A stretch of DNA of 64,000 bases from contig JACRIK010000021.1 in NCBI GenBank assembly GCA_016235865.1, positions 97,226 through 161,225 on the forward strand, given 5' to 3'. The notes under the pieces are model-generated. The model was not told the origin of the DNA, searched no databases, and saw only the letters and a list, made by a program, of their open reading frames with translations. A program made the translations under genes and the position numbers. The stretch is from Planctomycetota bacterium (lineage in GTDB: Bacteria; Planctomycetota; MHYJ01; JACQXL01). Positions 3,870-64,000 of this stretch are shown here, one piece after another (position 1 is the first letter of the stretch; each line of letters begins with the position of its first letter).

Positions 3870-4472
3870 ATGTACAGCAAGATTAGTTTGGAAAAATATC
3901 TGGAGATGATAGCGGCGCCGACGGCCACGCCGGGCGGCGGGAGCGTTTCGGCATACGCCGGAGCCCTGGGCGCATCGCTGGGCAGTATGGCCAGCGGTAT
4001 CGCGCTCAAGAAGGTGCTGGCCCATTCGCATGATTTTGAGACGCTCAAGGAAGCGCAGAAGATATTCCGCCGGAATTATTACGCGCTTTTGAAACTGGCC
4101 GAGGCGGATAGCGCGGCATACGATAAGGTTAGTCAGGCATATAAACTCCCGCATCACGTCCTTAAGCGCCGGGGCGAGATTAACAAGGCCCTTAAAGCCG
4201 CCACAGAAGTGCCGTATAGGACAATGCTCCTGTCGCTGGAAAACCTCAACGAGATAAGCAAGGTCCGGAAACTTCTGCCGGTCCAGATATTGAGCGACAT
4301 CAACGTGGCGGCCCTGCTCAGCAAAGCGGCTTATAACGGGGCCCGGCTGAACGTTATTGTCAACGTCGAATCGCTCACTGACAAGAAGGTCTCGCGCAAG
4401 ATAGAAAAAGATATAGAGAAGGTGGAGCAGGCATTTGCCGAGACCATTCTCTGGCTTGATGATTGGATGTAG
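3870..4472 (+). CDS. cyclodeaminase/cyclohydrolase family protein (formiminotetrahydrofolate cyclodeaminase-like)
   Basis: 200 aa; 'AAPTATPGGGSVSAYAGALGASLGSMA' typical FTCD C-terminal-domain family. Confidence 0.75.
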   Translation: MYSKISLEKYLEMIAAPTATPGGGSVSAYAGALGASLGSMASGIALKKVLAHSHDFETLKEAQKIFRRNYYALLKLAEADSAAYDKVSQAYKLPHHVLKRRGEINKALKAATEVPYRTMLLSLENLNEISKVRKLLPVQILSDINVAALLSKAAYNGARLNVIVNVESLTDKKVSRKIEKDIEKVEQAFAETILWLDDWM

Positions 4473-4478
4473 GAGCAA

Positions 4479-4534
4479 AGAGCGTAGGGCGTATAGCGTA
4501 GAAACTATAAGCTCTATGCTATAAGCTCTATGCT
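4479..4534. repeat. repeat family A copy
   Basis: agagcgtagggcgtatagcgtag...ctataagctctatgctataagctctatgct. Confidence 0.7.
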
Positions 4535-4537
4535 ATT

Positions 4538-5125
4538 ATGTGGCAGATAGAAAAAACCACCAAACGCTGTCAGGAATGTAACTCAACTATAGAGGTCAGC
4601 CAGCATTATTTTTCGGCGCTGTTCCCTAATCCAACGGATAAAACAGGGGAGCCGCGCCTATTGCGCCGGGATTTTTGCGCTAATTGTTGGGAGCGGCGGA
4701 CCGCGGCCGGTGAAGAGCCACCCTTTTCCTTCTGGCAGACTGTCATAGAACCACCGGCTGAGCCGCCCAAGACCCCGCGCGAGGTTCTGCTTAATTTCTT
4801 TGATAACCTATTTAAGGAAGCAACTGAAGTGCCCGCGGCAGAGAATACGTCTGTGCCGGTGGTTCAGGACACCAGATTAAAATCCCAGGTAAAATACCTC
4901 TTTGCTTTGATTATGATGCGCAAGAAATTATTGCGGCTGAAGAGCCCGCTGACCCGGGACAATACCCGGTATCTGGTCCTGGAGCGGTTTGCGAAGCCGC
5001 AGCGGAGTCCCGATAACTTCGGGGGTGATGCTAAGGTTTATGAGGTGGCCGAAGTAAACATTTCGGATGAGGAGTTAGATTCCCTAAGGCAGGAATTTTC
5101 ACAACTCTTTGAATTCAGGATATAA
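4538..5125 (+). CDS. hypothetical protein with N-terminal CxxC...CxxC zinc-ribbon
   Basis: 195 aa ORF; CQEC...CANC; no recognisable family. Confidence 0.5.
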   Translation: MWQIEKTTKRCQECNSTIEVSQHYFSALFPNPTDKTGEPRLLRRDFCANCWERRTAAGEEPPFSFWQTVIEPPAEPPKTPREVLLNFFDNLFKEATEVPAAENTSVPVVQDTRLKSQVKYLFALIMMRKKLLRLKSPLTRDNTRYLVLERFAKPQRSPDNFGGDAKVYEVAEVNISDEELDSLRQEFSQLFEFRI

Positions 5126-6315: not shown

Positions 6316-9294
6316 TTATAGATATTTCTTCAATATTTTTCCAGTATAAGAGCGTTCTTGCCTGGCAATCTCTTCAGGGGTGCCGGAAGCGACTACTCGG
6401 CCGCCTTCATCACCGCCTTCGGGTCCCAGATCAATGATATAGTCAGCCATTTTGATGACGTGCATATTATGTTCGATGACCACAACGCTGTTACCGCGGT
6501 CCACCAGTCGATTGAGGACATTGAGCAGTTTATTGATATCGGAGAAATGCAGGCCGGTAGTCGGCTCGTCAAGTATGTAAAGGGTTTTATTGGTGGCGGT
6601 CTTGCCTAATTCAGCTGATAGCTTGACCCGCTGGGCTTCGCCGCCTGAGAGCGTGATGCTGGATTGGCCCAGGGCGATATAGCCCAGTCCGACGTTATCG
6701 AGTGTCTTGAGGATGCGCACGATATGCGGGAAGTTCTGGAAGAATTCCACGGCGGCTGAGACCTCCATTTCCAGGACATCGGCGATATTCTTACCCCGGT
6801 AGGTGATGTCCAGGGTCTCGCGGTTATATCTTTTGCCTTTGCACTGTTCACAGGTGATGTAGACATCAGGCAGGAAGTGCATCTCGATTAGTTTAGTGCC
6901 TTGGCCCTGGCAGTCGGCGCATCGGCCGGCCTTGAGATTAAAACTAAATCGGCCGGACTGGTAACCCCGTAATCGGGCTTCCTTAGTCATGGTAAAGACC
7001 TTGCGTATCTCGTCAAAGACGCCGGTATAAGTGGCCGGATTTGAACGAGGCGTCCGGCCAATCGGCGACTGGTCAATGATAATTACTTTGTCAACATGTT
7101 CGGCACCGATAATGTCGTCGCATTCACCTGAACGAATCCGGCTCCGGTAAATTTTCTTCATCAGCCCTTTATAGAGGATTTCATTGACCAGCGTGCTTTT
7201 GCCTGAGCCGGATACGCCGGTTACACAGGTAAAGCAACCTAATGGGATGGGTACATTGATGTCTTTCAGGTTGAATTCCCGGGCCCTGATGATGTTTAGC
7301 CAGTTATGTTCGCTCGCGCGGTCTCTGCGGAGTTCGCTGGCGCGGTCACTGCGGCCTTCTGATTTGTCATTTTTTATTTTATTATTAGCAGTATTTGGCT
7401 GCGGGAATAGATTGCGGTCAAAACGCCTTTTCTTTGGCACTTCTATTCTTAATTTATTGGTCAGGTATTGCAGGGTCAGGGAATGGTTATTATTATTTTC
7501 TCCTGAAGTTCCGTTAGGCGGTTTTACAGTATTATTATTGTTTGTCATTTTACCGTTTAGGACATCCTTACTCGGAGCCGAGATGATTACCTGTCCACCC
7601 CGGGTGCCGGCGCCCGGACCGACATCAATCAGATAATCCGATGCCCTGATGGTGTCTTCGTCGTGCTCAACTACAATGACTGTATTGCCTAAGTTTCTTA
7701 ATTTTATCAGGGTATTGAGCAGGCGTTGGTTATCGCGTTGGTGCAGTCCGATGGTTGGTTCGTCAAGGACATAGCAGACCCCGACCAGACCTGAACCGAC
7801 CTGGGAAGCCAGCCGTATCCGTTGGGCCTCGCCGCCTGAAAGCGTCAAACTGCGCCGGTCTAATGTCAGGTAGGACAGTCCCACGTCTATCAGAAATGAA
7901 AGGCGGTTCTTGATTTCCTTTAACGCCATCTGTCCGATAAGCGTCTGTTCAGCGGTTAGGACGAGTTTATCAAAGAAGTGATAGGCGTCCTTAACCGCCA
8001 TCTGAATCACCTCGGAGATATTTTTTCCGCCGATGCGGACGGCCAGTGGCTCTGGTTTTAAGCGCGCGCCTTTGCAGGTTGGGCAGGGCAGTTCGCTCAT
8101 ATATGAGTGTATCCGGTGCTTGACTCCTTCGCTCTGGGTTTTGTAGAACCGGTTCTCCAAGTCCGGTATCACGCCGGTAAAACTGCGTTTATATTTGGCT
8201 TCATCTGGTTGATTGGTGCCGTACATCAGGATCCGTTTCTTATCTTCAGGCAGGTTGTAGAAAGGCGCATCCATAGCTATGTTGAAATCGCCGGCGAACT
8301 CCTTGATAACATACGAATAATAAATAGCCATCCGGTGTCCGGATTTACGCCAAGCCTCGATGGCTCCGTTAGCCAGCGAGAGCGACTTGTCAGGCACAAT
8401 CAGGTCCATATCCAGTTCCATCCGTGTGCCCAGGCCGTTGCAGCGTGGGCAGGCGCCATAAGGTGAATTAAACGAGAATATCCGCGGGCTTAATTCCGAT
8501 AAACTTATCTGGCATTCCGGACAGGCAAAATGCTCCGAGAATACCAGGTCGGAAAACCGTTTGCCCTGGGGCTGATGCGAGATGATGACCAATCCTTCGC
8601 CTAATCTCAATGCGGTTTCGACCGAATCAGCCAGCCGGCTCTTTTCTATGCCGGCAGGCTCAACGCTCAGTCTGTCGATGACTATCTCGATATTATGACG
8701 TTTGTATTTATCCAGTTTAGGGACGGATGAGCCGAGTTCTATAACCTTGTTGTCAACCCGGACTCGGACAAAGCCATTGCGCCGGATGCGTTCAAAGACA
8801 TCCCGATGTTCGCCTTTTTTGCCTCGGATAATCGGAGCCAGGACAATAATCCGGGAATAAGCCGGGAATGATTGGATATGCTGGATAATCTGCTGGGCGG
8901 ACTGTTTGACAATTGGTTTATTGCACTTGGGGCAGAAGGGTTGGCCCAACCGGGCGAAGATAACGCGCAGATAATCATATATCTCGGTAGTGGTAGCCAC
9001 GATCGAGCGAGGTGTGCCGGTTCCGCCCCGTTGTTCTATAGAAATCGTGGGAGGCAGGCCTTCGATAGATTCCACATCCGGTTTGGCAATTTGTTCCAGG
9101 AACTGCCGGGCGTAGGCCGAGAGCGATTCGATATAACGGCGTTGTCCCTCGGCGTAAATGGTATCAAAAGCCAGGGAGGTCTTGCCTGAGCCGGAGACAC
9201 CGGTTACCACAATTAGTTTATCACGCGGGATATCAATGTTGATATTCCTGAGATTATGCTCCTTGGCTCCGCGTATGGATATATGATTGGTCAT
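6316..9294 (-). CDS. uvrA: excinuclease ABC subunit A (UvrA) with internal low-complexity/repeat insertion
   Basis: 992 aa; two ABC ATPase modules, Zn fingers; N-term '[42 protein letters not shown]'. Confidence 0.9.
7311..7356. repeat. dispersed repeat family B (modules X+Y) inserted in-frame in uvrA
   Basis: cgcgcggtctctgcggagttcgctggcgcggtcactgcggcc; translated '[13 protein letters not shown]' on minus strand. Confidence 0.85.
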
Positions 9295-11642: not shown

Positions 11643-11708
11643 TCAATAGTGAATTGTGGAATGCGAATTGTGAATTGACTAATCCGCAATCCGCAATTCG
11701 TATCCATT

Positions 11709-22077: not shown

Positions 22078-22455
22078 GCGACCATAGAGTATCCCCTAAG
22101 CGGGGGCGGTCTATCCCCTAAGCGGGGATGGGCTATCCCCTAAGCGGGGAGGGGCTATCCCCTAAGCGGGGACGGGCTATCCTCTAAGCGGGGAGGGACT
22201 ACCCCCTAAGCGAGGGTGGACTATCCCCTAAGCTGGGAGGGGCTACCCCCTAAGCGGGGTGGGGCTACCCCCTAAGCGGGGATGGGCTATCCCCTAAGCG
22301 AGGTGGGGCTATCCCCTATGCGAGGTAGGGCTATCCCCTAAGCGAGGTGGGACTATTCCCTAAGCCGGGACGGGCTATCCCCTAAGCGGGGACGGACTAT
22401 CCCCTAAGCCGGGAGGGGCTACCCCCTAAGCGGGGATGGGCTATCCCCTATGCGA
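22078..22455. repeat. tandem array, ~17 copies of 22-bp unit CTATCCCCTAAGCGGGGATGGG
   Basis: head-to-tail copies with point variation, no spacers; stops in all frames. Confidence 0.9.
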
Positions 22456-22661
22456 GGATGGGGTATCACGGGTGCGGGGATGGGGGGAGGGGGGAGGGGG
22501 GATACCCCACCCCCCACCGTCTGAACCGGTTTTTGAGATAATAACTTTATGGATAAATGGTTACGCCAAAACCCGAGTGATTTTGGTAGCAGATTTCAGC
22601 CCGGATTACTTATTTAACGAGACATTAGACGACTTTTGGGGGTCGATATTGGCCTTTTGTT

Positions 22662-23636
22662 CTATGTCCCGCCAGAAGATAGGGCCAATGCGGCTGCGCC
22701 TAAGAGGCCGGCATCCTCGCCTAATTTGGCCGGGACAATCAGGGGCTTGCGATAGGGGTGTTTCATTATACTTGCCTTGACTACCTGACGCAGGGGTTTG
22801 AACAGAATCTCACCGGCCTGAGCCACTCCGCCGCCGATTACCACCATCTCCGGGTCAAAGATGTTAATCAGCGATGCGCAGGCCAGACCGAGATAATGGG
22901 CGGTGTCTTGAACAACTTCGCGGGCGAGTTTGTCGCCTTTTCTGGCTTTGTCAAATATTGTTTTAGCAGTAATGTCGTGCGTCTTGCGTCCTACGTCTTG
23001 CGTCCGGACGCCCAACGCATAACGCCCAACGCATAACGCATAGCGTTCTACAATGGCCGGTGCGCTGACCAGCGCTTCCAGATGCCCGGGTTTCCCGCAA
23101 CTGCAGTCCGGGCCATTGGGGTCTACGTTCATATGCCCGATTTCAGCGGCATAGAAATGCGAGCCGCGATATATCTGGTTGTCAATGATAATCCCGCCGC
23201 CTACGCCGGTGCCTAAGGTCAGGCAGATGAGATTCGTTGCTTTCTTCCCAGCGCCCCAGCATTTCTCACCCCAGCCGGCCAAATTGGCATCGTTGTCTAT
23301 GAAGACGGGTATTTTGAGCGCCTTCTCAAGCTCCTGTTTTACCTTCGTGCCTTTCCAGCCAATCAGATTGGGGGAGTCAGCCAGGATAATGCCTCTTTCA
23401 GCGTCAATAGAGCCGGGACAGGCGAGGCCGACACCGCGAACGGAATGACGAATGACGAATGACGAATGACGAATAACTTGATTGACTAATTGGGCAATGA
23501 GCCGGATGCCTTGTTTGCCATTGGGTGCTTTCGAGAAAGAGACCTTTTTCCTGGCCTTGATATGGCCGTTTTGGTCCACCAGCGCCGCGGTGATGTGGCT
23601 GCCGCCTAAATCGATACCAATAGCAAATTTGGTCAT
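22662..23636 (-). CDS. ROK family sugar kinase (glucokinase-like)
   Basis: 324 aa; 'KFAIGIDLGGSHITAALVD', CxCGxxGHLE zinc motif; contains in-frame repeat insertions. Confidence 0.8.
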   Translation of the reverse strand: MTKFAIGIDLGGSHITAALVDQNGHIKARKKVSFSKAPNGKQGIRLIAQLVNQVIRHSSFVIRHSVRGVGLACPGSIDAERGIILADSPNLIGWKGTKVKQELEKALKIPVFIDNDANLAGWGEKCWGAGKKATNLICLTLGTGVGGGIIIDNQIYRGSHFYAAEIGHMNVDPNGPDCSCGKPGHLEALVSAPAIVERYALCVGRYALGVRTQDVGRKTHDITAKTIFDKARKGDKLAREVVQDTAHYLGLACASLINIFDPEMVVIGGGVAQAGEILFKPLRQVVKASIMKHPYRKPLIVPAKLGEDAGLLGAAALALSSGGT

Positions 23637-23653
23637 AAGATGTATATAGTAAA

Positions 23654-23696
23654 ATCCCCCTTAATCCCCCTTTTGCAAAGGGGGAAGGGGGATTAG
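23654..23696 (-). terminator. nested poly-C/poly-G palindrome, candidate terminator for por operon
   Basis: atcccccttaatcccccttttgcaaagggggaagggggat, perfect nested inverted repeat directly downstream of porB. Confidence 0.4.
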
Positions 23697-33302: not shown

Positions 33303-34589
33303 GTGCATAAAATAAAACTCCCTTACGGCAAGAAATATCAGTATTTCCGTATTCCTTCATCGGTAAAATACAGGATATTGGAGGTGCGCGAGCCGGTACC
33401 GATTACTGATTTTTCAGGCAATTTGATACATGCCGTCAATCACCCGATTAATTCAGCTCGATTTGATTCTTTCTTTAACGTCCAGGATAAAATAGCCATT
33501 CTTATCCCGGATAAAACCCGTCGGTGCCCATCTGATAAGGTGCTTGATATTGTTATCAAACGCCTTACTGGTATGGGCGTGGACCGGGCAAATATCACCG
33601 TTATTCTGGCCCGGGGTTCTCATTCTGCTCACGCCCCGGCGGAGATAACTAAATTGGTTGGTCGGAGTACTTCCCGGGCTATAAAAGTCATAGACCACGA
33701 TGCCAATAAATCCACCGAGCTATCATATATCGGGACGACCTCAAGAGGTACGCAGGTAAGAATTAACAAGCATTGCGCCGATGCCGATAAAATCATTATT
33801 ATCGGGACAGTTGGCTATCATTATTACGCCGGCTTTTCAGGCGGCCGGAAACTCATCCTGCCCGGTATTTCCGCCTATCAGACCATCCAGCAGAATCACA
33901 GTTTGGTCCTGAATAAACCGCCTCTGAAAGGCAAGAATTCTGATGCCTGCCTAGGTAAACTTGACGGCAATCCGGTAAATGAGGATATGATAGAAGCCGC
34001 CCGGTTAGCCGGACGGGGAAGAGTTTTCTCCATCAATCTGGCGATTAATAGCCGGGATGAAATAATCAGAATGTTTTGCGGTGATATTATTGATGCGCAT
34101 CGTCGCGGGTGTGACTTTGTGGACAGGATTTATCAAGTACCGCTTAAAGGTAAGGCGGATTATATTATTGCTTCGGCAGGCGGGTATCCTACGGATGTTA
34201 ATTTTATTCAGACTCATAAAGCAATAGAAAACGCTGTTTATGCCTTAAAGGATAGAGGGAAAATGCTGATTTTGGCCGAATGCAAAGAGGGCATTGGTTC
34301 GGATATATTTATGGGTTTTTTGCAGCACCGGACACCGGAAAAAATGGAAGCCGAACTGCGCAAGAAGTTTGTGGTTTCAGGCCATACGGCCTTATGCACC
34401 TTGATAAAGGCAAATAGGTTTGATATCTACCTTTATTCTGGGCTCAAGGATTCTCTTGTCAGGAATTTACACTTTACGCCGATGGATGACGTCCAGCGGG
34501 CGATGGATATTTTCTTCAGGCAGATGCCTGATGACGCGACGGTATTTGTTCTGCCCAAGGGGTGCGGTGTCAGGCCGGTTGTTTCTTAG
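33303..34589 (+). CDS. LarA-like (nickel-dependent lactate racemase family, DUF2088) protein
   Basis: 428 aa; LarA N- and C-terminal domain family resemblance. Confidence 0.65.
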   Translation: MHKIKLPYGKKYQYFRIPSSVKYRILEVREPVPITDFSGNLIHAVNHPINSARFDSFFNVQDKIAILIPDKTRRCPSDKVLDIVIKRLTGMGVDRANITVILARGSHSAHAPAEITKLVGRSTSRAIKVIDHDANKSTELSYIGTTSRGTQVRINKHCADADKIIIIGTVGYHYYAGFSGGRKLILPGISAYQTIQQNHSLVLNKPPLKGKNSDACLGKLDGNPVNEDMIEAARLAGRGRVFSINLAINSRDEIIRMFCGDIIDAHRRGCDFVDRIYQVPLKGKADYIIASAGGYPTDVNFIQTHKAIENAVYALKDRGKMLILAECKEGIGSDIFMGFLQHRTPEKMEAELRKKFVVSGHTALCTLIKANRFDIYLYSGLKDSLVRNLHFTPMDDVQRAMDIFFRQMPDDATVFVLPKGCGVRPVVS

Positions 34590-35032
34590 ATGGCTTTTTG
34601 CTCATCCTGTAGTTCAGAAGGATGTTCCTTAAAATCACCTGGTTTATAACCAGGTTTTTTAGCCCGTTCCACTTCATCCTTATATGCCTGCAGGACTTTG
34701 TTTTGAATCATATCACGGCATTGAGTATTAATCGGGTGGCAGATATCGGCGAATACCTGAATCCGTCCGTTCAGATCACGAGGTCCTCGTCCGGAATCTA
34801 ATTTACAGCCGCACTCGCAGCAGAATCTTGAGAGCATGGTATTCTTACCACGGCATTTGGGGCAATGGTCTGTTATCTTGCGGCTGGGCATAGCCACAAA
34901 AATCCCGTTGGATCCTTCAATAACCTTCAAATCCCTGACGACAAAGGCATTGTCAAAAGTGATGCTGCAGAATGCCTTCAGCCGGTCTGCGGCCCGTCCC
35001 AGTAATCTTACTCTTGTCTCTGTTATTTCCAT
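34586..35032 (-). CDS. spoVG: SpoVG-family protein with inserted zinc-ribbon
   Basis: 148 aa; 'ITFDNAFVVRDLKVIEGSNGIFVAMPSRK...HPIN' SpoVG core interrupted by CPKCRGKNTMLSRFCCECGC. Confidence 0.7.
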   Translation of the reverse strand: MEITETRVRLLGRAADRLKAFCSITFDNAFVVRDLKVIEGSNGIFVAMPSRKITDHCPKCRGKNTMLSRFCCECGCKLDSGRGPRDLNGRIQVFADICHPINTQCRDMIQNKVLQAYKDEVERAKKPGYKPGDFKEHPSELQDEQKAI

Positions 35033-43879: not shown

Positions 43880-44575
43880 ATGTCCGACTTCACTAAGAAA
43901 TCCTGGAAGTGCGTTGATATCAAGGATATTGATTGGGGCCAGAGGTTTGAGTTTAACGAGGATAAGGTGGATACCTATGTGTCGGACCTGCCCGGGGTCT
44001 ATCGCCTGGTTTATCGGACAATCCATGAGGGCAAGGATGGGTATTTTGTATTTTATAACGGCGAGACGGATGATTTATACAAGACACTGTGCGGGCATCT
44101 TAATCTCCTGAAGATTGAACTGCCACCGCCCAAGAATCCCTATAATGCCCCGGAGCATTGCATACAAAAGACCCTGCAGGAATACCCGTGCTATTTCAGG
44201 TTTATAATAGTCCGTTCAAAAAAGGAGCGGGTCCGGATTAAGAAGGAGCTTGATGATTCCATTATCCCCAAGGGCGAGATGGAATTCGCGGCCTGGGCCG
44301 ATAATTTCTTCCGGGTGTTGTCGGCCAACGCGGACAAGTGGTTTCCTCCGGCGGAGCGTCCTGCTGATTTTAGCGATGCTCTTGATAAATTTAATGACAA
44401 GCACAAGAAGTTTATGGCGTCCTATGATGAGCATCTCAAGGTGCAGATTAATCTTAGGGCCGCTGAGAAGAAACTGAAAGACGCCGAGCAGAAACTCAAG
44501 GATGAACAGCAGAAACGCAAGGAAGCTGAGAATGAAGGCGAGGAGTGGAAAGAGGGGAAGAATAAGCCGGACTGA
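43880..44575 (+). CDS. hypothetical protein with C-terminal coiled coil
   Basis: 231 aa ORF; weak GIY-YIG-like 'PGVYRL...GYFVFYNGETDDLYKTL'. Confidence 0.45.
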   Translation: MSDFTKKSWKCVDIKDIDWGQRFEFNEDKVDTYVSDLPGVYRLVYRTIHEGKDGYFVFYNGETDDLYKTLCGHLNLLKIELPPPKNPYNAPEHCIQKTLQEYPCYFRFIIVRSKKERVRIKKELDDSIIPKGEMEFAAWADNFFRVLSANADKWFPPAERPADFSDALDKFNDKHKKFMASYDEHLKVQINLRAAEKKLKDAEQKLKDEQQKRKEAENEGEEWKEGKNKPD

Positions 44576-44745
44576 TGATTAAAGCAACCCCCTGGACGGC
44601 TCAGGGGGACTGACCGATGACTGAAGCAACCCCCTGGATGACTCAGGGGGACTGACGGATGACTGAAGCAACCCCCTGGATGGCTCAGGGGGGCTGCGGA
44701 ATGACTGAATAAACCCCCTGGACGGTCCAGGGGAGCCATTTGCGG
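44574..44745. repeat. 4 tandem copies of ~42-bp unit each containing a CCCCCTGG..CCAGGGGG hairpin
   Basis: tgactgaagcaaccccctggatgactcagggggactgacgga x4 with point variation. Confidence 0.85.
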
Positions 44746-46435: not shown

Positions 46436-48460
46436 ATGAGTAAAAGGTTAGTTGCCATATTTGTTATCGGTATATTTTTGAGTTTTGGCATAATATCAAT
46501 GGATACTTACGGCTGGTGCCCGAATCCGCCCAAGATGGGTGGATACACTCCGCCGCCCAGGCCCAAGCCGCCTGACCCTGCGCCAGAGGCGCCTAAGGAA
46601 CAACCTAGGCCGCCCGAGGCGCCCAAGGAGGCGCCCAAGACACCCGAGTCACCCAAGGAACAGCCCAAACAGTCCGAGACACCCAAGGAGTCCGAGACGC
46701 CAAAGCAACCCGAGGCGCCCAAGGACCAGCCGGCAACCCCGCCGGTTCCGGCAACACCGGAAGCTCCTAAGGATACTACGCCACCACCGCCTCCTCCTCC
46801 GACCACGGATACGCCTTTTGACCCCAATAGTTCTGTCGGAGGCACAGGAGGCAAGAGGCCAACCAGCGGAGGCGCATCTGTTACCCGTCCGCCATTGGAT
46901 TTCGGACTGCAACCCCGCATTCAGGCAATGACCCAGGGCACCTCTAATCTCCTGGGATATGTTGAACCCTGGGAGGTCTGGTGGACCCGTAACCGGGCCA
47001 AGTACCTGAAATTCCGCCAGCCCATAGAATTTATCAGTAAAACAAACGACGGCTATGTTAACGTGGCCAAGGAATACGACGAGATTTTCAATCTCTTCAA
47101 CAAAGCGCTGCACGACAAGGACCTCTATGTCCGGGTGGCGGCCGCCCAGGGATTGAGCAAGATGGGCGATAACAAGGTCAATCCCATCCTTAAAAAGGCA
47201 TTTTACGATGAGAAGCAGTTGTACGTGGAGAATAACATTATTTTTGCCATGGGCCTGATGGGCGATGCGACAAACGCCATTGTCCTGAAAGAGATAGCGG
47301 TCAATAAGCAGGAGACCGAGATAAACCGCGCCTATGCCATCCTGGCTTTAGGGTATGTCAAGAACAATGAAGAGGTGATTAAGGTATTAAAGGAATTAGC
47401 CGGCCAGCCGGACAAGGATGAGGTGGTGGCCAGCGCGGCCCTGGCACTGGGCAATCTTAAAGAAGCGTCCGCCGTTCCGATCCTGGCCAAACTTATCCAG
47501 CGGGGCGTTCTTTACCAGGGTGAGAAAAGTGACCGCAAGGTTAGGACGTATGCGGCCTTGGGCCTTGGCCGCATCGGCACTAAAGAGGCCGTGAACGAGC
47601 TGAAGAAATCGTTGGACGATAAGGATAAGGATGTCCAGGAATGCGTGGCCATTGCCCTGGGCTCAACCAAATTGCCCGAGGCCCTGAATCCGTTGATTCA
47701 ACTGCTATCAGACCGCGATTTGTCGGTCCGGGGATTCGCCGCCATTTCTCTAAGCCAGATATTGGATAAGGCGGTGTATCCTTTGCTATCTGATGCTTAC
47801 CGGAATGCCAAAGACCCGCAGGTAGACGGTATGATTGTCCTGGCCATGGGCTTGAACGGCGATAAGCGGGCCATCCCTGAACTGCAGAAGATTCTCACCA
47901 CCAAGACCAAGCGGTCCCTGATTAAAGGTGCAGCGGCTATTGCCCTGGGGCTCTTGAAGGATACCTCATCCGTCCAGATTATCTCCGACCTGCTGGACAA
48001 GAGCAATGACCCGGTGCTGGCGGCTCACCTGACCCTGAGTTTGGGGATGATCGGCGATATTAAGGCCGTGGATGTCATCAAGAAGAAGTGGGCGGATGTC
48101 GGAAGCAAGACGACCAATATTGCCTATACCAATATGGCCGTGGCCCTAACGATGCTGGGCGCCAGGGATGAGCTGGTGCTGCCGATGATTCGCAAGCACT
48201 TTGATAAGAAAGAAATGACCGCCCTGCGCCAGCATGCGATTCATTCGGCCGGACTGATCGGCGGCAAGGATATTATCAGCGATGTGGCCAAATTATATGA
48301 TGACGAGACCAACCCGCAGGTGCGTAATTACATCGTCAGTTCGCTGGGTTTTGTGGTTGACGTCAATGAAACCCCGCTGCTTACCAAGGTTACCGCAGAC
48401 AATGACTACAATGTCTTTATGTGGATTATGGAACACCTTCTGCCGCTGCCGCTGTGGTAA
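46436..48460 (+). CDS. secreted HEAT-repeat (PBS-lyase-type) protein with Pro/Lys/Glu-rich N-terminal linker
   Basis: 674 aa; signal peptide; 'PEAPKEQPRPPEAPKEAPKTPESPKE' repeats; multiple 'VRxxAAxALGxxGD' HEAT-like repeats. Confidence 0.75.
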   Translation: MSKRLVAIFVIGIFLSFGIISMDTYGWCPNPPKMGGYTPPPRPKPPDPAPEAPKEQPRPPEAPKEAPKTPESPKEQPKQSETPKESETPKQPEAPKDQPATPPVPATPEAPKDTTPPPPPPPTTDTPFDPNSSVGGTGGKRPTSGGASVTRPPLDFGLQPRIQAMTQGTSNLLGYVEPWEVWWTRNRAKYLKFRQPIEFISKTNDGYVNVAKEYDEIFNLFNKALHDKDLYVRVAAAQGLSKMGDNKVNPILKKAFYDEKQLYVENNIIFAMGLMGDATNAIVLKEIAVNKQETEINRAYAILALGYVKNNEEVIKVLKELAGQPDKDEVVASAALALGNLKEASAVPILAKLIQRGVLYQGEKSDRKVRTYAALGLGRIGTKEAVNELKKSLDDKDKDVQECVAIALGSTKLPEALNPLIQLLSDRDLSVRGFAAISLSQILDKAVYPLLSDAYRNAKDPQVDGMIVLAMGLNGDKRAIPELQKILTTKTKRSLIKGAAAIALGLLKDTSSVQIISDLLDKSNDPVLAAHLTLSLGMIGDIKAVDVIKKKWADVGSKTTNIAYTNMAVALTMLGARDELVLPMIRKHFDKKEMTALRQHAIHSAGLIGGKDIISDVAKLYDDETNPQVRNYIVSSLGFVVDVNETPLLTKVTADNDYNVFMWIMEHLLPLPLW

Positions 48461-50311: not shown

Positions 50312-51376
50312 TTGCTAAAACAAATCTATCTTGATAAAATAGCAGATATGAGAAGATATAATATCGCCATTGTCGGTGCCACGGGTATTGTCGGGCTGGA
50401 GTTGCTTAAGATACTGGTGGAACGCAGATTCCCGGTAAGAGAATTGCGCCTGTTTGCTTCTGCCGGATCGGCTGGGAAAAGTATGAGGTATAAAGGTAAA
50501 GGGTTGAAAGTAAACAATATAACCAATAACTCATTTGAGGGCATAGATATCGCCTTCTTTGCTGTTGATGGTTCAATCAGTAAAAAATGGGCGCCGGTGG
50601 CGGTGAAAAGCGGGGCGGTGGTGATTGATAAGTCCAGCGCCTTCAGGATGGGCAAGAATGTGCCGCTGGTTATTCCGGAAATTAATGCCGATGCTATTAA
50701 CACAAACTCCCCTTTAGTAAGAGGGGGTAGGGGGTGTGTTATCGCCAGCCCTAATTGCTCGACCACGCCTCTGGCCATGGCCTTAAAGCCGCTCAATGAT
50801 TACGCTAAGGTGAAACGGGTGGTCGTGTCCACATATCAATCAGTCTCCGGCGCCGGTCTGCAGGCAGTGCAAGCGTTGACCGAACAAACAAAGCAAGTAT
50901 TAAATCTGAAATCTAAAATCTTAAATCTTAAATCTCAAAGATACGCCTTCAACGCCATCCCGCAGATTGATTCGTTCTGCGAGGACGATTATACCGGTGA
51001 AGAAGTCAAGATGATTAACGAGACCCGCAAGATACTCAATGATTATTCCATAAAGATAACCGCCACATGTGTGAGGATTCCGGTCTATTGCGGGCATAGC
51101 GAATCAGTCAATATCGAAACAGCCAGACCCATAACTGTTGCCCAGGCTAGGAATCTGTTAAGCAGGGCAAAGGGTATTAAGGTAATGGACAATCCTTTAA
51201 AGGGTAGTTATCCTATGCCGATTGATGTTGCAGGTAAGGACGAAGTATTCGTGGGCCGGATTCGCAAAGACCGGTCCGTCAGGAACGGAATCAACCTTTG
51301 GCTGGTTTCTGACAACCTTCGCAAAGGCGCGGCCTTGAATGCGGTGCAAATAGCGGAATATCTGATAAAAACATGA
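50312..51376 (+). CDS. asd: aspartate-semialdehyde dehydrogenase
   Basis: 354 aa; 'IAIVGATGIVG', active-site 'NCSTT'; contains two short in-frame repeat insertions. Confidence 0.85.
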   Translation: MLKQIYLDKIADMRRYNIAIVGATGIVGLELLKILVERRFPVRELRLFASAGSAGKSMRYKGKGLKVNNITNNSFEGIDIAFFAVDGSISKKWAPVAVKSGAVVIDKSSAFRMGKNVPLVIPEINADAINTNSPLVRGGRGCVIASPNCSTTPLAMALKPLNDYAKVKRVVVSTYQSVSGAGLQAVQALTEQTKQVLNLKSKILNLKSQRYAFNAIPQIDSFCEDDYTGEEVKMINETRKILNDYSIKITATCVRIPVYCGHSESVNIETARPITVAQARNLLSRAKGIKVMDNPLKGSYPMPIDVAGKDEVFVGRIRKDRSVRNGINLWLVSDNLRKGAALNAVQIAEYLIKT

Positions 51377-51415
51377 GTTATGAATTAATAATTGATAACT
51401 TATAATTCATAATTT

Positions 51416-53227
51416 ATGGTTCTCTATGATGTTGTTGTAGTCGGTGCCGGACATGCCGGAATAGAAGCCGCTCTGGTCTCTGCCCGAATGGGCTGTCAGA
51501 CCCTTCTCCTGACTATATCCTTTGACACCATTGCTCAGATGTCCTGCAATCCGGCTATCGGTGGATTAGCCAAAGGGCAATTGGTCCGTGAGATTGATGC
51601 CCTGGGCGGCGAGATGGCTAAGGCCACGGATGCCACCGGCATCCAATTCCGTATGCTCAATACCGGCAAGGGTCCGGCCGTTCAATCACTCCGCGCCCAG
51701 TGCGATAAGAAACAATATCACCTTTACATGAAGAAAGTTTTGAAGAATCAGGATAATCTCATCCTGCAAGAGGATATGGTTAACGAGATTATGGCCAAAG
51801 GCAATTGCGCAGTCGGCGTAAAGGGTAAAAAGGAGTCATACTACGGAAAAGCTGTGATTATTACCACCGGTACCTTTATGAAAGGGCTGATTCATATCGG
51901 TGAAGACAAGACCAAGGGCGGGAGAATCAATGAGCCGTCAGCCGAAAACATTTCGGATAGTCTGGTTAAGCTTGGCTTGGAATTAGGCCGCTTGAAGACC
52001 GGCACGCCGCCCCGGCTGGATACCAAAAGTATAGATTACCCCGGGCTGATAGAGCAGCCCGGCGATGAGATGCCGAAACCATTTTCATTCTCTACTGAAA
52101 AGATTATTCAGAAACAGATTCCTTGTTACATCACGCATACAAATAATAAGACGCACGAGATAATTCGCAAGAATCTTGATCGGGCGCCGCTTTATACCGG
52201 TCAGATTAAGGCCATCGGCCCGCGGTATTGTCCTTCCATTGAAGATAAGATAGTCAGATTCGCCGGCCGGGAACAGCATCAGGTTTTCCTGGAGCCGGAA
52301 GGCCGCAAGATTCCTGAGGTCTACTGCAACGGAATTTCCACCAGTTTGCCCAAGGATGTCCAGGAAGAAATGGTGCATTCTATCGAGGGGCTGGAGGATG
52401 CTGAATTTATCCGTTATGGTTATGCCATAGAATATGATGTGGTCCTGCCGCACCAGATAAAGCCGACATTGGAAACCAAGAAAGTGGAGAACCTTTTTGT
52501 AGCCGGTCAGATAAATGGCACATCCGGTTATGAGGAAGCCGGGGCCCAGGGGTTGATGGCCGGCATCAATGCGGTACTGAAGATAAGAAATGACCCGTCA
52601 TTTATTCTCGGGCGGGATGAAGCATATATCGGGGTTTTGATAGATGATTTAGTCACGCTCGGGCCGACCGAACCGTATCGGATGTTTACCTCGCGGGCCG
52701 AATATCGCCTGCTTCTGCGTTCTGATAACGCCGACCGGCGCCTGATGCCTTATGCGAATAAATTGGGATTGCTTGATAGGGCGCTGAAAAAGAGATTAGA
52801 TAATAAGGAACGCTTGATAAGAGATACGCTCAACGTATTAAGTCGGACGTTCAAGGGAACTAAGAATTTGAAGACGCTGCTCAAACAGCCGGAGATTACG
52901 CTGAAGGAATTAGAACATAAGTCAGCACCTTTGCGTAAGCTTAAACTGACCGACGATATCCGGGAACAGGTGGAGATTGAGGCTAAATATGAAGGGTATA
53001 TCCAGCGCCAATTGCGCCAGATTGAAAAGGCCAGAAAGATGGAGGATTATCCGTTGCCGCCTGGTTTTGATTACGGCAAGATAGGGCATCTCAGCAAGGA
53101 AGCCCGGACCCAACTCAATAAATTCAAGCCGGCTTCATTAGGCCAGGCATCGCGTATTGCCGGCGTCTCTCCGGCAGATATCACAGTTCTGATGGTATAT
53201 TTTCTATATGGCAGGAGAGCGCCATAA
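51416..53227 (+). CDS. mnmG: tRNA uridine-5-carboxymethylaminomethyl synthesis enzyme MnmG
   Basis: 603 aa; FAD-binding 'YDVVVVGAGHAGIEAA', GidA family. Confidence 0.9.
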   Translation: MVLYDVVVVGAGHAGIEAALVSARMGCQTLLLTISFDTIAQMSCNPAIGGLAKGQLVREIDALGGEMAKATDATGIQFRMLNTGKGPAVQSLRAQCDKKQYHLYMKKVLKNQDNLILQEDMVNEIMAKGNCAVGVKGKKESYYGKAVIITTGTFMKGLIHIGEDKTKGGRINEPSAENISDSLVKLGLELGRLKTGTPPRLDTKSIDYPGLIEQPGDEMPKPFSFSTEKIIQKQIPCYITHTNNKTHEIIRKNLDRAPLYTGQIKAIGPRYCPSIEDKIVRFAGREQHQVFLEPEGRKIPEVYCNGISTSLPKDVQEEMVHSIEGLEDAEFIRYGYAIEYDVVLPHQIKPTLETKKVENLFVAGQINGTSGYEEAGAQGLMAGINAVLKIRNDPSFILGRDEAYIGVLIDDLVTLGPTEPYRMFTSRAEYRLLLRSDNADRRLMPYANKLGLLDRALKKRLDNKERLIRDTLNVLSRTFKGTKNLKTLLKQPEITLKELEHKSAPLRKLKLTDDIREQVEIEAKYEGYIQRQLRQIEKARKMEDYPLPPGFDYGKIGHLSKEARTQLNKFKPASLGQASRIAGVSPADITVLMVYFLYGRRAP

Positions 53228-62798: not shown

Positions 62799-62813
62799 AT
62801 ATCAAGAATAGTA

Positions 62814-62858
62814 ACCACAGATAAACACAGATTAACACTGATTTTATCTAATCTGTGC
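62814..62858. repeat. AACCACAGAT-family palindromic element
   Basis: aaccacagataaacacagattaacactgattttatctaatctgtgc. Confidence 0.7.
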
Positions 62859-63079: not shown

Positions 63080-63123
63080 AACCACAGATTTAATTATCTG
63101 TGTATATCTGTGTAATCTGTGGT
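63080..63123. repeat. AACCACAGAT-family palindromic element abutting valS stop
   Basis: aaccacagatttaattatctgtgtatatctgtgtaatctgtggtt (3 direct ATCTGTG + inverted CACAGAT). Confidence 0.8.
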
Positions 63124-64000
63124 TTATAGTTCTCTTAGCGATTCCTTCAGATTTGCTTCCTGTTTGGCCAGTTCTTCCTGCCTGAGCAATTCTTTTTGGA
63201 GAATGGCCTGGGGCGCCCGTGATTTGAAATTCTCGTCGGATAATTTATTGGTCACTAAAGCCAGTTGTTCCTTGATTTTGATCAGGCGCTGTTCCAGCCG
63301 TTTTTTCTCCGCCTCCGGGTCAATAATTCCCTCCAACGGTATGAAAAGCTGCAAAGCATTGACGATTTCGGTGGCCGAGTGTTTGGGTTTGGCCAGTTTT
63401 ACGCCCATCTCTATCTTACCCAGATTAGCCTGATGCTTAATCAGTTCTTCATGCGGCCGAATGCCGTCCAGCGCTTTGCTCACTTCAGCCGAGATAATCA
63501 GGTCTAACGCCTGCTTGCGCTCGATTGTCATCTTATTGCGGATATTCCGGACACTCCGGATGATGCCGATATTTATTTCCATTGTCTGCTCAATCTGCTC
63601 GTCTATCTGCTTGGGCTCGGCCGACGGCCAGGTTGCACTCATCACTGATTCGCTCTGGAAATGTTCCGGATATTGCTCCTTAAACTTCTGCCAGAGTTCC
63701 TCGGTGATAAACGGGATGAAGGGATGGAGCATGCGCAGGGTATTGCTGAAGAGATAAAAAAGCGTAGAGCGTGTAGCGTTGAGCGTAGAGGCGTCTTGGC
63801 TGTATAATCTTGGCTTGATGATTTCCAGATACCAGTCGCACAAATCGCTCCAGAAGAAGTGGTAAATCAAGTGGGCCGCCTCGCTGAATTGGTAGGTCTC
63901 TAAGGCCTTGGTATAATCGCGGATGGTGGTGTTCAGGCGGGAGAGAATCCAGCGGTCTTCGAATGTGTCGTGCGTTGTGGGTTGTGTGTCTTGGGTTTTT
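63124..64000 (-). CDS. valS: valine--tRNA ligase, C-terminal part (gene continues beyond window end)
   Basis: 'DRWILSRLN...SEAAHLIYHFFWSDLCDWYLEIIKP' and C-terminal coiled coil; frame stays open to 64000. Confidence 0.8.
   Translation of the reverse strand, partial: KTQDTQPTTHDTFEDRWILSRLNTTIRDYTKALETYQFSEAAHLIYHFFWSDLCDWYLEIIKPRLYSQDASTLNATRSTLFYLFSNTLRMLHPFIPFITEELWQKFKEQYPEHFQSESVMSATWPSAEPKQIDEQIEQTMEINIGIIRSVRNIRNKMTIERKQALDLIISAEVSKALDGIRPHEELIKHQANLGKIEMGVKLAKPKHSATEIVNALQLFIPLEGIIDPEAEKKRLEQRLIKIKEQLALVTNKLSDENFKSRAPQAILQKELLRQEELAKQEANLKESLREL

Follow-up and report, generated by a model that had tools for sequence, protein, structure and literature searches.

The window, by which we mean the whole 64,000-nt stretch of Planctomycetota DNA analysed here, carries on its minus strand a gene for a ROK-family sugar kinase (Table 1). 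The encoded protein of 324 amino acids matches the Pfam ROK family with an E-value of 4.7 × 10−76, has the glucokinase 2qm1 as its best solved match (E=1.5 × 10−57) and is identical to the NCBI protein MBI5779080.1 ('MAG: Planctomycetes bacterium'). Its motifs are intact (GIDLGGSH, EIGH and CSCGKPGHLE, corresponding to the N-terminal DxGGT-like motif, ExGH and the CxCGxxG[CH]xE zinc motif), and the AlphaFold model of the kinase has a mean pLDDT of 89. Inside this conserved ORF, three in-frame arrays of tandem heptamers were detected by TRF at two sites. Site B holds a single array that encodes residues 55–65, IRHSSFVIRHS; site A is composed of two arms that together encode residues 198–221, RYALCVGRYALGVRTQDVGRKTHD. 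Reverse-complementing the 5′ arm of site A roughly yields the 3′ arm, with the cores TGCGT and ACGCA, and on the mRNA strand the two inverted arrays fold into a hairpin of −35.1 kcal/mol (z=−4.35), a stability that none of 200 shuffles equalled. A first-pass annotation of this DNA had reported two separate repeats in the kinase gene, at 22975–23045 and 23440–23470. The heptamers are real and are translated as it described; the positions were off by a few bases, and the first of the two 'separate' repeats proved to be the hairpin-forming inverted pair.

Table 1. Heptamer arrays and palindromic elements in the window, with the ROK kinase gene (TRF, tandem-repeat detection; fold, RNA folding).
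Feature	Positions	Strand	Basis and remarks
Inverted pair TAGAGCG... / CTATGCT ATAAGCC..., hairpin upstream of carboxyltransferase gene	158–236	plus	TRF, fold (z=−4.71); intergenic
Single array AGAGATG ×4.7, immediately 3′ of carboxyltransferase stop codon	1786–1818	plus	TRF
Inverted pair AGAGCGT ×3.4 and CTATAAGCTCTATG ×2.3, hairpin filling the whole intergenic gap	4479–4536	plus	TRF, fold
Intergenic inverted pair AATTGTG ×4.7 / AATCCGC ×2.4, hairpin upstream of penicillin-binding-protein gene	11645–11697	plus	TRF, fold (z=−4.72)
ROK-family sugar kinase gene, 324 aa	22662–23636	minus	ORF and Pfam match; hosts arrays
Site A, 3′ arm, GACGCAA ×4.4, aa 211–221	22974–23004	minus	TRF, period 7
63-nt imperfect hairpin of the two inverted site-A arrays, mRNA strand	22978–23040	minus	Fold
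Site A, 5′ arm, alternating TATGCGT/TGGGCGT, about 5 units, aa 199–210	23008–23042	minus	TRF, period 7/14, 100% at period 14
Site B, single perfect array, gene-strand ATTCGTC ×4.6	23443–23474	minus	TRF, 100% matches, score 64
Palindromic element AATCCCCC..GGGGGATT between ROK gene and POR beta-subunit gene	23653–23692	plus	Fold (−29.6 kcal/mol, z=−4.03)
TTAAATC ×5.7 in asd, aa 196–209, VLNLKSKILNLKSQ	50900–50939	plus	TRF; in frame
AT-rich period-7/14 palindromic array in the asd–mnmG intergenic gap	51383–51417	plus	TRF
valS array, coding-strand CTACGCT family, ...DASTLNATRSTLF	63761–63790	minus	TRF; in frame
Second valS period-7 stretch, TQDTQPTTHDT	63962–63999	minus	Lag-7 scan; in frame

Similar repeats had also been noted in valS and asd, and both genes indeed contain them, in frame. 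The array region of asd aligns without gaps to the structure 2qz9, and the valS array at 63761–63790 aligns to 4xkz with a two-residue gap. Orthologues of asd carry differing heptad alleles at the array site, including LKSKILNLKSQR, RSTLHALRSTHP, FQLPTSNFQLHY and RTTSNEQRTTKP, and contain more heptad-periodic segments elsewhere in the protein. Among the intergenic features, the elements at 158–236 and 4470–4542 align as homologous copies of one element, the second of which contains a hairpin at 4479–4536 of −29.9 kcal/mol (z=−5.35). The palindromic element AATCCCCC..GGGGGATT is intergenic in the window but lies in frame inside site A of an orthologous kinase gene (L004). An inverted-repeat architecture that folds into a hairpin is common to site A and four intergenic elements (z from −4.0 to −5.35); the arrays at 1786–1818, in asd at 50900–50939, in valS at 63761–63790 and at site B of the kinase gene are single and showed no structure on folding (z=+0.83 for site B). 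Two further features of the window were considered and set aside: a set of 10-mer arrays at 62.8–63.1 kb was ruled out as DnaA boxes or oriC by its gene context (HD-GYP, ClpB and valS), and the long SpoVG is not another repeat insertion, its insert being Cys-rich, zinc-ribbon-like and non-repeat.

The first-pass annotation regarded the kinase arrays as insertions, a description that is not supported for this protein. The spacing between the DxGG and GxGxPG motifs is 61 residues, compared with a mode of 60 among 91 distant ROKs, and that between CxCG and GGG is 89 residues, compared with a mode of 89 in the same set; the alignment to 2qm1 likewise needs a single gap position at site B and is gap-free at site A. 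Compared with ROK kinases at large, the arrays thus bring no net gain in length. In a multiple alignment of 30 ROKs both array sites are unconserved. In the structural model, site B comprises the end of a helix (residues 40–56) and the loop before a strand (66–73), with pLDDT values of 81–85, and site A lies in a helix-loop-helix (192–207 and 212–221) after the zinc motif and is the least confident part of the model (pLDDT 66 and 48 for residues 201–220). Because motif spacing equals the family norm, the arrays occupy native, already variable and poorly constrained surface segments. The term 'insertion' applies only to some relatives (L001, L004 and L006), in which site A carries extra small palindromic elements; within the immediate clade this site is length-polymorphic, with 26–57 residues between its anchors.

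The arrays were compared with chance expectation across the window by TRF, using 30 second-order Markov shuffles of the window as the reference. Period-7 rows numbered 15 against 1.23 expected, an excess of ~12-fold, and period-14 rows 5 against 0.27, with other periods remaining near expectation. A lag-match scan (threshold, at least 15 of 21 matches) gave 13 segments at lag 7 compared with 0.45 expected, and 1–4 segments at lags 5–11. A stricter array detector with a mismatch penalty of −4 recovered only three arrays and was replaced by these two approaches. The excess is a property of the lineage: arrays reached a density of 30 per 100 kb in this lineage and of 6.7 per 100 kb (~4-fold lower) in a control of 859 kb surrounding unrelated ROK genes of 80 other genomes (distant ROKs with 32–42% identity), in which no period-7 peak was seen. 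The feature is not particular to the kinase gene; it is spread through the genome of this lineage. Most arrays are intergenic, with approximately 7 of the 13 lag-7 segments falling in the non-coding ~10% of the window. A typical array consists of ~4.5 units spanning ~32 nt, and array lengths show a narrow mode near 32 nt, which may partly reflect the TRF detection threshold.

The same families of units recur at unrelated loci, in the 64-kb window and in ~50 kb of DNA from relatives. The ACGCTCN family is found in the window at the intergenic positions 163 and 4479 and at 63761 in valS, and in relatives at site A of the kinase genes L003 and L006, at site B in P0027 and P0020, and in the asd gene of P0127. 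The AGAGATG family occurs at 1786 and at site B of L007, and the ACGCAAG family in the 3′ arm of site A and in valS at 63962–63999. A periodic GCGTNNNGCGTNNNGCGT (GCGT) pattern has eight matches at four loci, compared with 0.10 expected. This recurrence, together with the two intergenic copies of one element, points to dispersal or templated copying beyond simple local slippage. Pfam searches with the 50 ORFs of the window returned mostly housekeeping or signalling families, with seven ORFs lacking a match, and detected no transposase, integrase or reverse-transcriptase domain; an Rfam search of the window returned only a tRNA and no match at the arrays. A diversity-generating retroelement was rejected as the source, as no reverse-transcriptase domain was found among these 50 ORFs and the differences between alleles are unit-wide rather than A-specific.

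Seven orthologous ROK genes (L001 and L003–L008; eight genes with that of the window) were compared together with their DNA; a search of genome contigs was dominated by distant ROKs and produced no close relative, and one of metagenome contigs yielded only three close loci (L089, L091 and L093). Synteny with pyruvate:ferredoxin oxidoreductase is kept wherever the retrieved flank reaches it (L003, L004, L006 and L007). With the arrays excluded, the kinase gene of the window is 76–84% identical to its relatives at the nucleotide level and 53–69% at third codon positions. The same two sites carry arrays in these genes, and a site-B array of 4.4–4.7 units is present in all seven orthologues. The unit itself differs, with four different units across the window and its orthologues: ATTCGTC (the window, L001 and L004), ATTCATA (L003 and L008), ACTAATA/TCTCATC (L005 and L006) and TCTCATC (L007). 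P0027 and P0020 have yet another allele at site B, the fifth, which reads RSTL[YH]A. In L005, an array immediately upstream of the start codon of the gene itself has the same unit as site B. The first-pass annotation had suggested a search for length polymorphism in related genomes; in these relatives the sites are polymorphic in sequence as well as in length. No orthologue examined has the same residues without the nucleotide repeat, a pattern that the first-pass annotation had named as evidence against its account; those with the same residues carry the same nucleotide repeat, and the remaining orthologues carry different repeats.

Sequence identity in and around the arrays separates into distinct classes. 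The 150 nt downstream of site B are 80–93% identical among these genes, whereas the array columns are 31–66% identical between alleles. Array identity between genomes is bimodal, reaching 92–97% where an allele is shared and 29–70% otherwise, and the shared-allele arrays exceed the identity of third codon positions (66–69%). The sites therefore carry discrete alleles, and gradual concerted evolution is a poorer fit to the bimodality than the replacement of discrete alleles or recombination. The alleles are also combined as mosaics: the window shares its site-A allele with L005 and its site-B allele with L001 and L004, while L005 shares its site-B allele, but not its site-A allele, with L006. 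Between the window and L005, the units of site A are reshuffled with the length unchanged. Where a change is present in every unit of an array, homogenisation of the units is implied. All eight kinase genes are in frame with an approximately constant copy number of 4.4–4.7, and neither frameshift nor copy-number variants were found among them. In most of the orthologues the site-A hairpin does not occur, which makes a conserved RNA function of this structure unlikely.

Taken together, we consider it probable (at roughly 60%) that the arrays are lineage-wide heptanucleotide simple-sequence repeats resembling the STRRs of cyanobacteria (short tandemly repeated repetitive sequences), made by slippage and conversion and filtered by selection where they fall in genes, rather than insertions specific to one gene. 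According to this interpretation, short arrays with 7-nt units would arise across the genome of an uncultured Planctomycetota clade. We infer that slipped-strand mispairing and short-patch gene conversion, within an array or ectopic, would generate them and keep them homogeneous, and some arrays would form inverted pairs and hence hairpins. Survival within a gene would require a length that keeps the frame, an orientation without a stop codon in any of the three phases and a poorly constrained position at the protein surface. Traces of such filtering can be recognised in the units. The reverse complements of the coding-orientation units ATTCGTC and ACGCTCT (GACGAAT and AGAGCGT) give stop codons, which leaves such an array a single viable orientation within a gene. 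In asd, the units that deviate, TAAAATC and TCAAAGA, sit exactly where the consensus TTAAATC would read as an in-frame TAA. In the kinase, two permissive segments, namely the end of helix 1 with its loop and the helix-loop-helix after the zinc motif, would have been overwritten by arrays, and the encoded peptides IRHSSFVIRHS and RYALCVGRYALGVRTQDVGRKTHD probably represent tolerated filler rather than functional modules. Purely local slippage is an ill fit to the discrete alleles, the recurring unit families and the length mode near 32 nt, so copy-paste events or ectopic conversion may also have played a part. A more far-reaching reading, in which an active, sequence-family-specific process of the clade overwrites permissive segments of essential genes as well as spacers with cassettes of ~32 nt made of a few kinds of heptamer unit, by ectopic short-patch conversion between arrays or by a dedicated enzyme, appears decidedly unlikely. 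If it were true, proteins that are otherwise conserved would carry, at fixed sites, peptide alleles that are discrete and exchangeable, and the process would constitute a previously undescribed form of protein-sequence turnover instead of passive slippage.

Several other explanations bear on the same observations. The arrays could be dispersed cassettes instead of local slippage products: palindromic elements of a REP/MITE-like kind, small, non-autonomous and either mobile or copy-pasted, that were inserted or converted into permissive segments. Site A does have the architecture of the intergenic hairpins at 158–236, 4470–4542 and 11644–11702, the first two of which are homologous to each other, and the AATCCCCC..GGGGGATT element occupies both a spacer in the window and site A of L004; the match between the L005 site-B unit and the array just 5′ of its start codon, the unit families shared by unrelated loci, the discreteness of the alleles and the 26–57 residues spanned by site A in the clade also speak for such cassettes. 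Yet, measured against the ROK family norm, the window arrays cause no net lengthening, no target-site duplications, conserved termini or defined ends were seen, and the arrays at site B and in asd and valS are single, with no inverted partner. Moreover, site A resembles the intergenic elements only in its periodic GCGT core and has no donor copy in the window, and no transposase is encoded among the 50 ORFs. We regard this origin as unlikely. Selection for function in cis is improbable. It would entail either proteins that bind the arrays in steps of 7 nt, such as cold-shock-type OB folds, or regulation of translation or mRNA decay by the site-A hairpin, and would agree with the conservation of shared-allele arrays above that of neighbouring third codon positions, the persistence of the periodicity while unit sequences change, the location of many arrays immediately 5′ of start codons or 3′ of stops, the significant stability of the hairpins and the regulatory roles proposed for TAACTGA repeats (PMC4679880). 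Against it, the sequence of the units varies at any one site, the site-A hairpin is missing from most orthologues, the single arrays are unstructured, and neither a candidate reader protein nor an Rfam match at the arrays was identified.

A coding array with a 7-nt unit shifts the frame unless its copy number changes by a multiple of three, and the perfect site-B array would be prone to slippage, so that phase variation at contingency loci, with copy-number slippage switching the frame as in NeuO, had to be weighed as well; NeuO provides the precedent for a coding heptanucleotide switch (PMC13001214). All eight kinase genes are nevertheless in frame at 4.4–4.7 units, unlike neuO (PMC13001214), most arrays are intergenic and those in genes are internal rather than 5′-proximal. 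Their hosts, the ROK kinase, asd and valS, are housekeeping genes and not surface or restriction-modification genes. Given the constant copy number, the in-frame state of all alleles and the essentiality of two of the host genes (asd and valS), a phase switch is very improbable. Chance similarity or an error of sequencing or assembly, for which the metagenome-assembled origin of the genome is the one argument, can be practically dismissed: the arrays strongly exceed the numbers in shuffles, each fits within a single read, and arrays recur at these sites in independent assemblies (ENA, JGI, Logan and NCBI). Lineage-wide simple-sequence repeats filtered by selection therefore remain our preferred account of the arrays.

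Repeats of this kind have already been described but are little studied, and they are reported here for the Planctomycetota; our literature search found no paper tying heptanucleotide repeats to Planctomycetes. They touch on a general puzzle of heptamer repeats, namely the reason for a unit of 7 nt and for approximately four units per array, and the role of the arrays. The clade offers a clean comparative series, in which the same sites of conserved single-copy genes (ROK, asd and valS) carry differing units in genomes that are ~80% identical, so turnover, homogenisation, allele exchange and selective filtering can be measured against a coding-sequence clock. For annotators and protein modellers, the odd heptad-periodic peptides in proteins from these metagenome-assembled genomes would be by-products of DNA-level repeats, and neither errors nor functional motifs.

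The closest parallel is provided by the STRR heptanucleotide sequences of cyanobacteria, reportedly described by Mazel and colleagues in 1990 and said, in work of Vioque from 1997, to occur inside the cyanobacterial RNase P RNA gene. As in that system, the arrays described here consist of tandem 7-nt units, belong to a few families spread over many loci, are mostly intergenic and occasionally occupy a tolerant position in a gene. They differ from the STRR sequences of heterocystous cyanobacteria in their host phylum, in their units and in being translated in frame within protein genes, and also in their short, near-constant length and in the many inverted pairs. More generally, heptanucleotides are the most abundant class of long simple-sequence repeats in many bacteria, for which polymerase slippage has been proposed (Mrazek et al. 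2007, as summarized in PMC4679880). Geobacter metallireducens contains elements of four tandem heptanucleotides (GGACCGG), present in 49 copies within and between genes and predicted to be regulatory RNA elements (PMC2700814); those elements belong to one family that BLAST can align and that has a single GC-rich consensus, in contrast to the several unit families and site-specific alleles observed here. The heptameric repeats of Xanthomonas and Nostoc (GGGNATC), for which a four-unit preference and inverted pairs were reported, are similar in their lineage-specific period-7 excess, intergenic over-representation, approximately four units and occasional inverted pairs (PMC4692102). Those repeats, however, are G-rich, form G-quadruplexes and occur less often than expected in coding sequence, whereas the units here are not based on G-tracts, and G-quadruplex formation thus cannot explain their four-unit preference.

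Two further systems resemble the arrays in how they relate to reading frames. Direct repeats of TAACTGA occur in marine Beggiatoaceae, cyanobacteria and Bacteroidetes in 2–6 copies just upstream of start codons (PMC4679880), and share with the present arrays a short length, a position upstream of starts and a restriction of orientation within ORFs by stop codons; in that case one favoured heptamer ends ORFs in one orientation, and TAACTGA arrays do not occur here. In neuO, as in the ROK kinase gene, a heptanucleotide repeat is translated within a coding sequence and the frame is kept in one of three length classes. The neuO repeat numbers 3–53 units, is out of frame in 65.6% of genomes and sits in the 5′ region of a surface-modification gene that is phage-borne and that it switches on and off (PMC13001214), whereas the arrays of this Planctomycetota clade have a copy number of ~4.6 that is stable across orthologues and occupy internal segments of housekeeping genes.

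The intergenic palindrome AATCCCCC(TT)AATCCCCCTTTTGCAAAGGGGGAAGGGGGATT of the window was also detected at two relatives' loci, upstream of the ROK sugar-kinase gene in L001 and, in L004, at site A of the ROK gene itself, where it is read in frame as IPPSPFCKGGERGI. Since an element that is intergenic in the window is translated in the L004 kinase, this comparison shows that coding sequence does get entered by the small hairpin elements of this lineage. The spacer between the pyruvate:ferredoxin oxidoreductase (POR) genes and ROK, upstream of the latter, was wholly different in each of four relatives (L003, L004, L006 and L007) and each time packed with its own small palindromic element (for example, GGGTCATTCCTGCGAAAGCAGGAATCC), the differences indicating that intergenic turnover in the clade is very fast.

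Repeat and insertion features of the window and of related loci
Feature	Locus	Position	Details
Palindrome	Window	23653-23692	Intergenic; fold -29.6 kcal/mol
22-nt tandem array	Window	22090-22467	17 copies; between convergent TPR-protein and ROK genes
Period-22 array	L091	700-1015	
Period-22 array	L093	8057-8219	
Period-22 array	L089	5996-6094	
SpoVG homologue	Window	34586-35032	148 aa
42-nt repeat, GACGGATGACTGAAGCAACCCCCTGGACGGCTCAGGGGGACT	Window	44570-44733	3.9 copies; gap between two ORFs without Pfam match
In-frame 18/30-nt repeats	Window	46612-46731	Close to N-terminus of 674-aa HEAT-repeat protein
Inverted 10-mer arrays, TAAACACAGA / TATCTGTGTA	Window	62812-62843 and 63095-63121	Between HD-GYP gene and valS
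Matching 10-mer arrangement	L089	3459-3485 and 3790-3815	

At L093, a close locus from a metagenome contig, homology to the ROK frame (~7400-7862) starts only at residue 221, breaking off exactly at site A beside a CCCCC-type hairpin, with an unrelated gene upstream of the break; one of two things accounts for this, a chimeric assembly or a rearrangement whose breakpoint lies at the repeat. Just 3' of ROK, both L093 and L091 carry a period-22 array, as the window does, with a unit sequence unlike that of the window (CTATCCCCTAAGCGGGGANGGG), every copy of which forms a CCCC/GGGG mini-hairpin; in L089 the array lies ~4.6 kb further downstream. The 42-nt unit likewise contains an internal hairpin (CCCCC/GGGGG).

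The 10-mer arrays near valS enclose ~250 nt holding a GTCATTTCC...GGAATCCAG-type palindrome, and together with this segment they may constitute a MITE-like element; the possibility of an origin of replication (oriC) at this position was discarded because of the gene context.

Within proteins, the 18/30-nt repeats encode a PKE-rich low-complexity segment, and several asd relatives have a 25-30-aa insertion, EEKMIDERKKMKDNNQKLSSLTSHLSSFP, with a heptad-periodic tail, following EINAxAI (columns ~212-240 of the orthologue alignment), at which the window asd carries a shorter, different segment, NTNSPLVRGGRGC. The SpoVG domain is interrupted by a ~37-aa Cys-rich, zinc-ribbon-like insert (CPKC...CCECGC), for which a repeat origin was considered and rejected.

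In an alignment with ROK proteins, the zinc motif of the window kinase (CSCGKPGHLE; 23080-23110, aa 178-187) was found to have His in place of the third Cys (GCLE) of most ROKs; this His is common to the nearest relatives, while the Cys is kept by more distant members of the clade.
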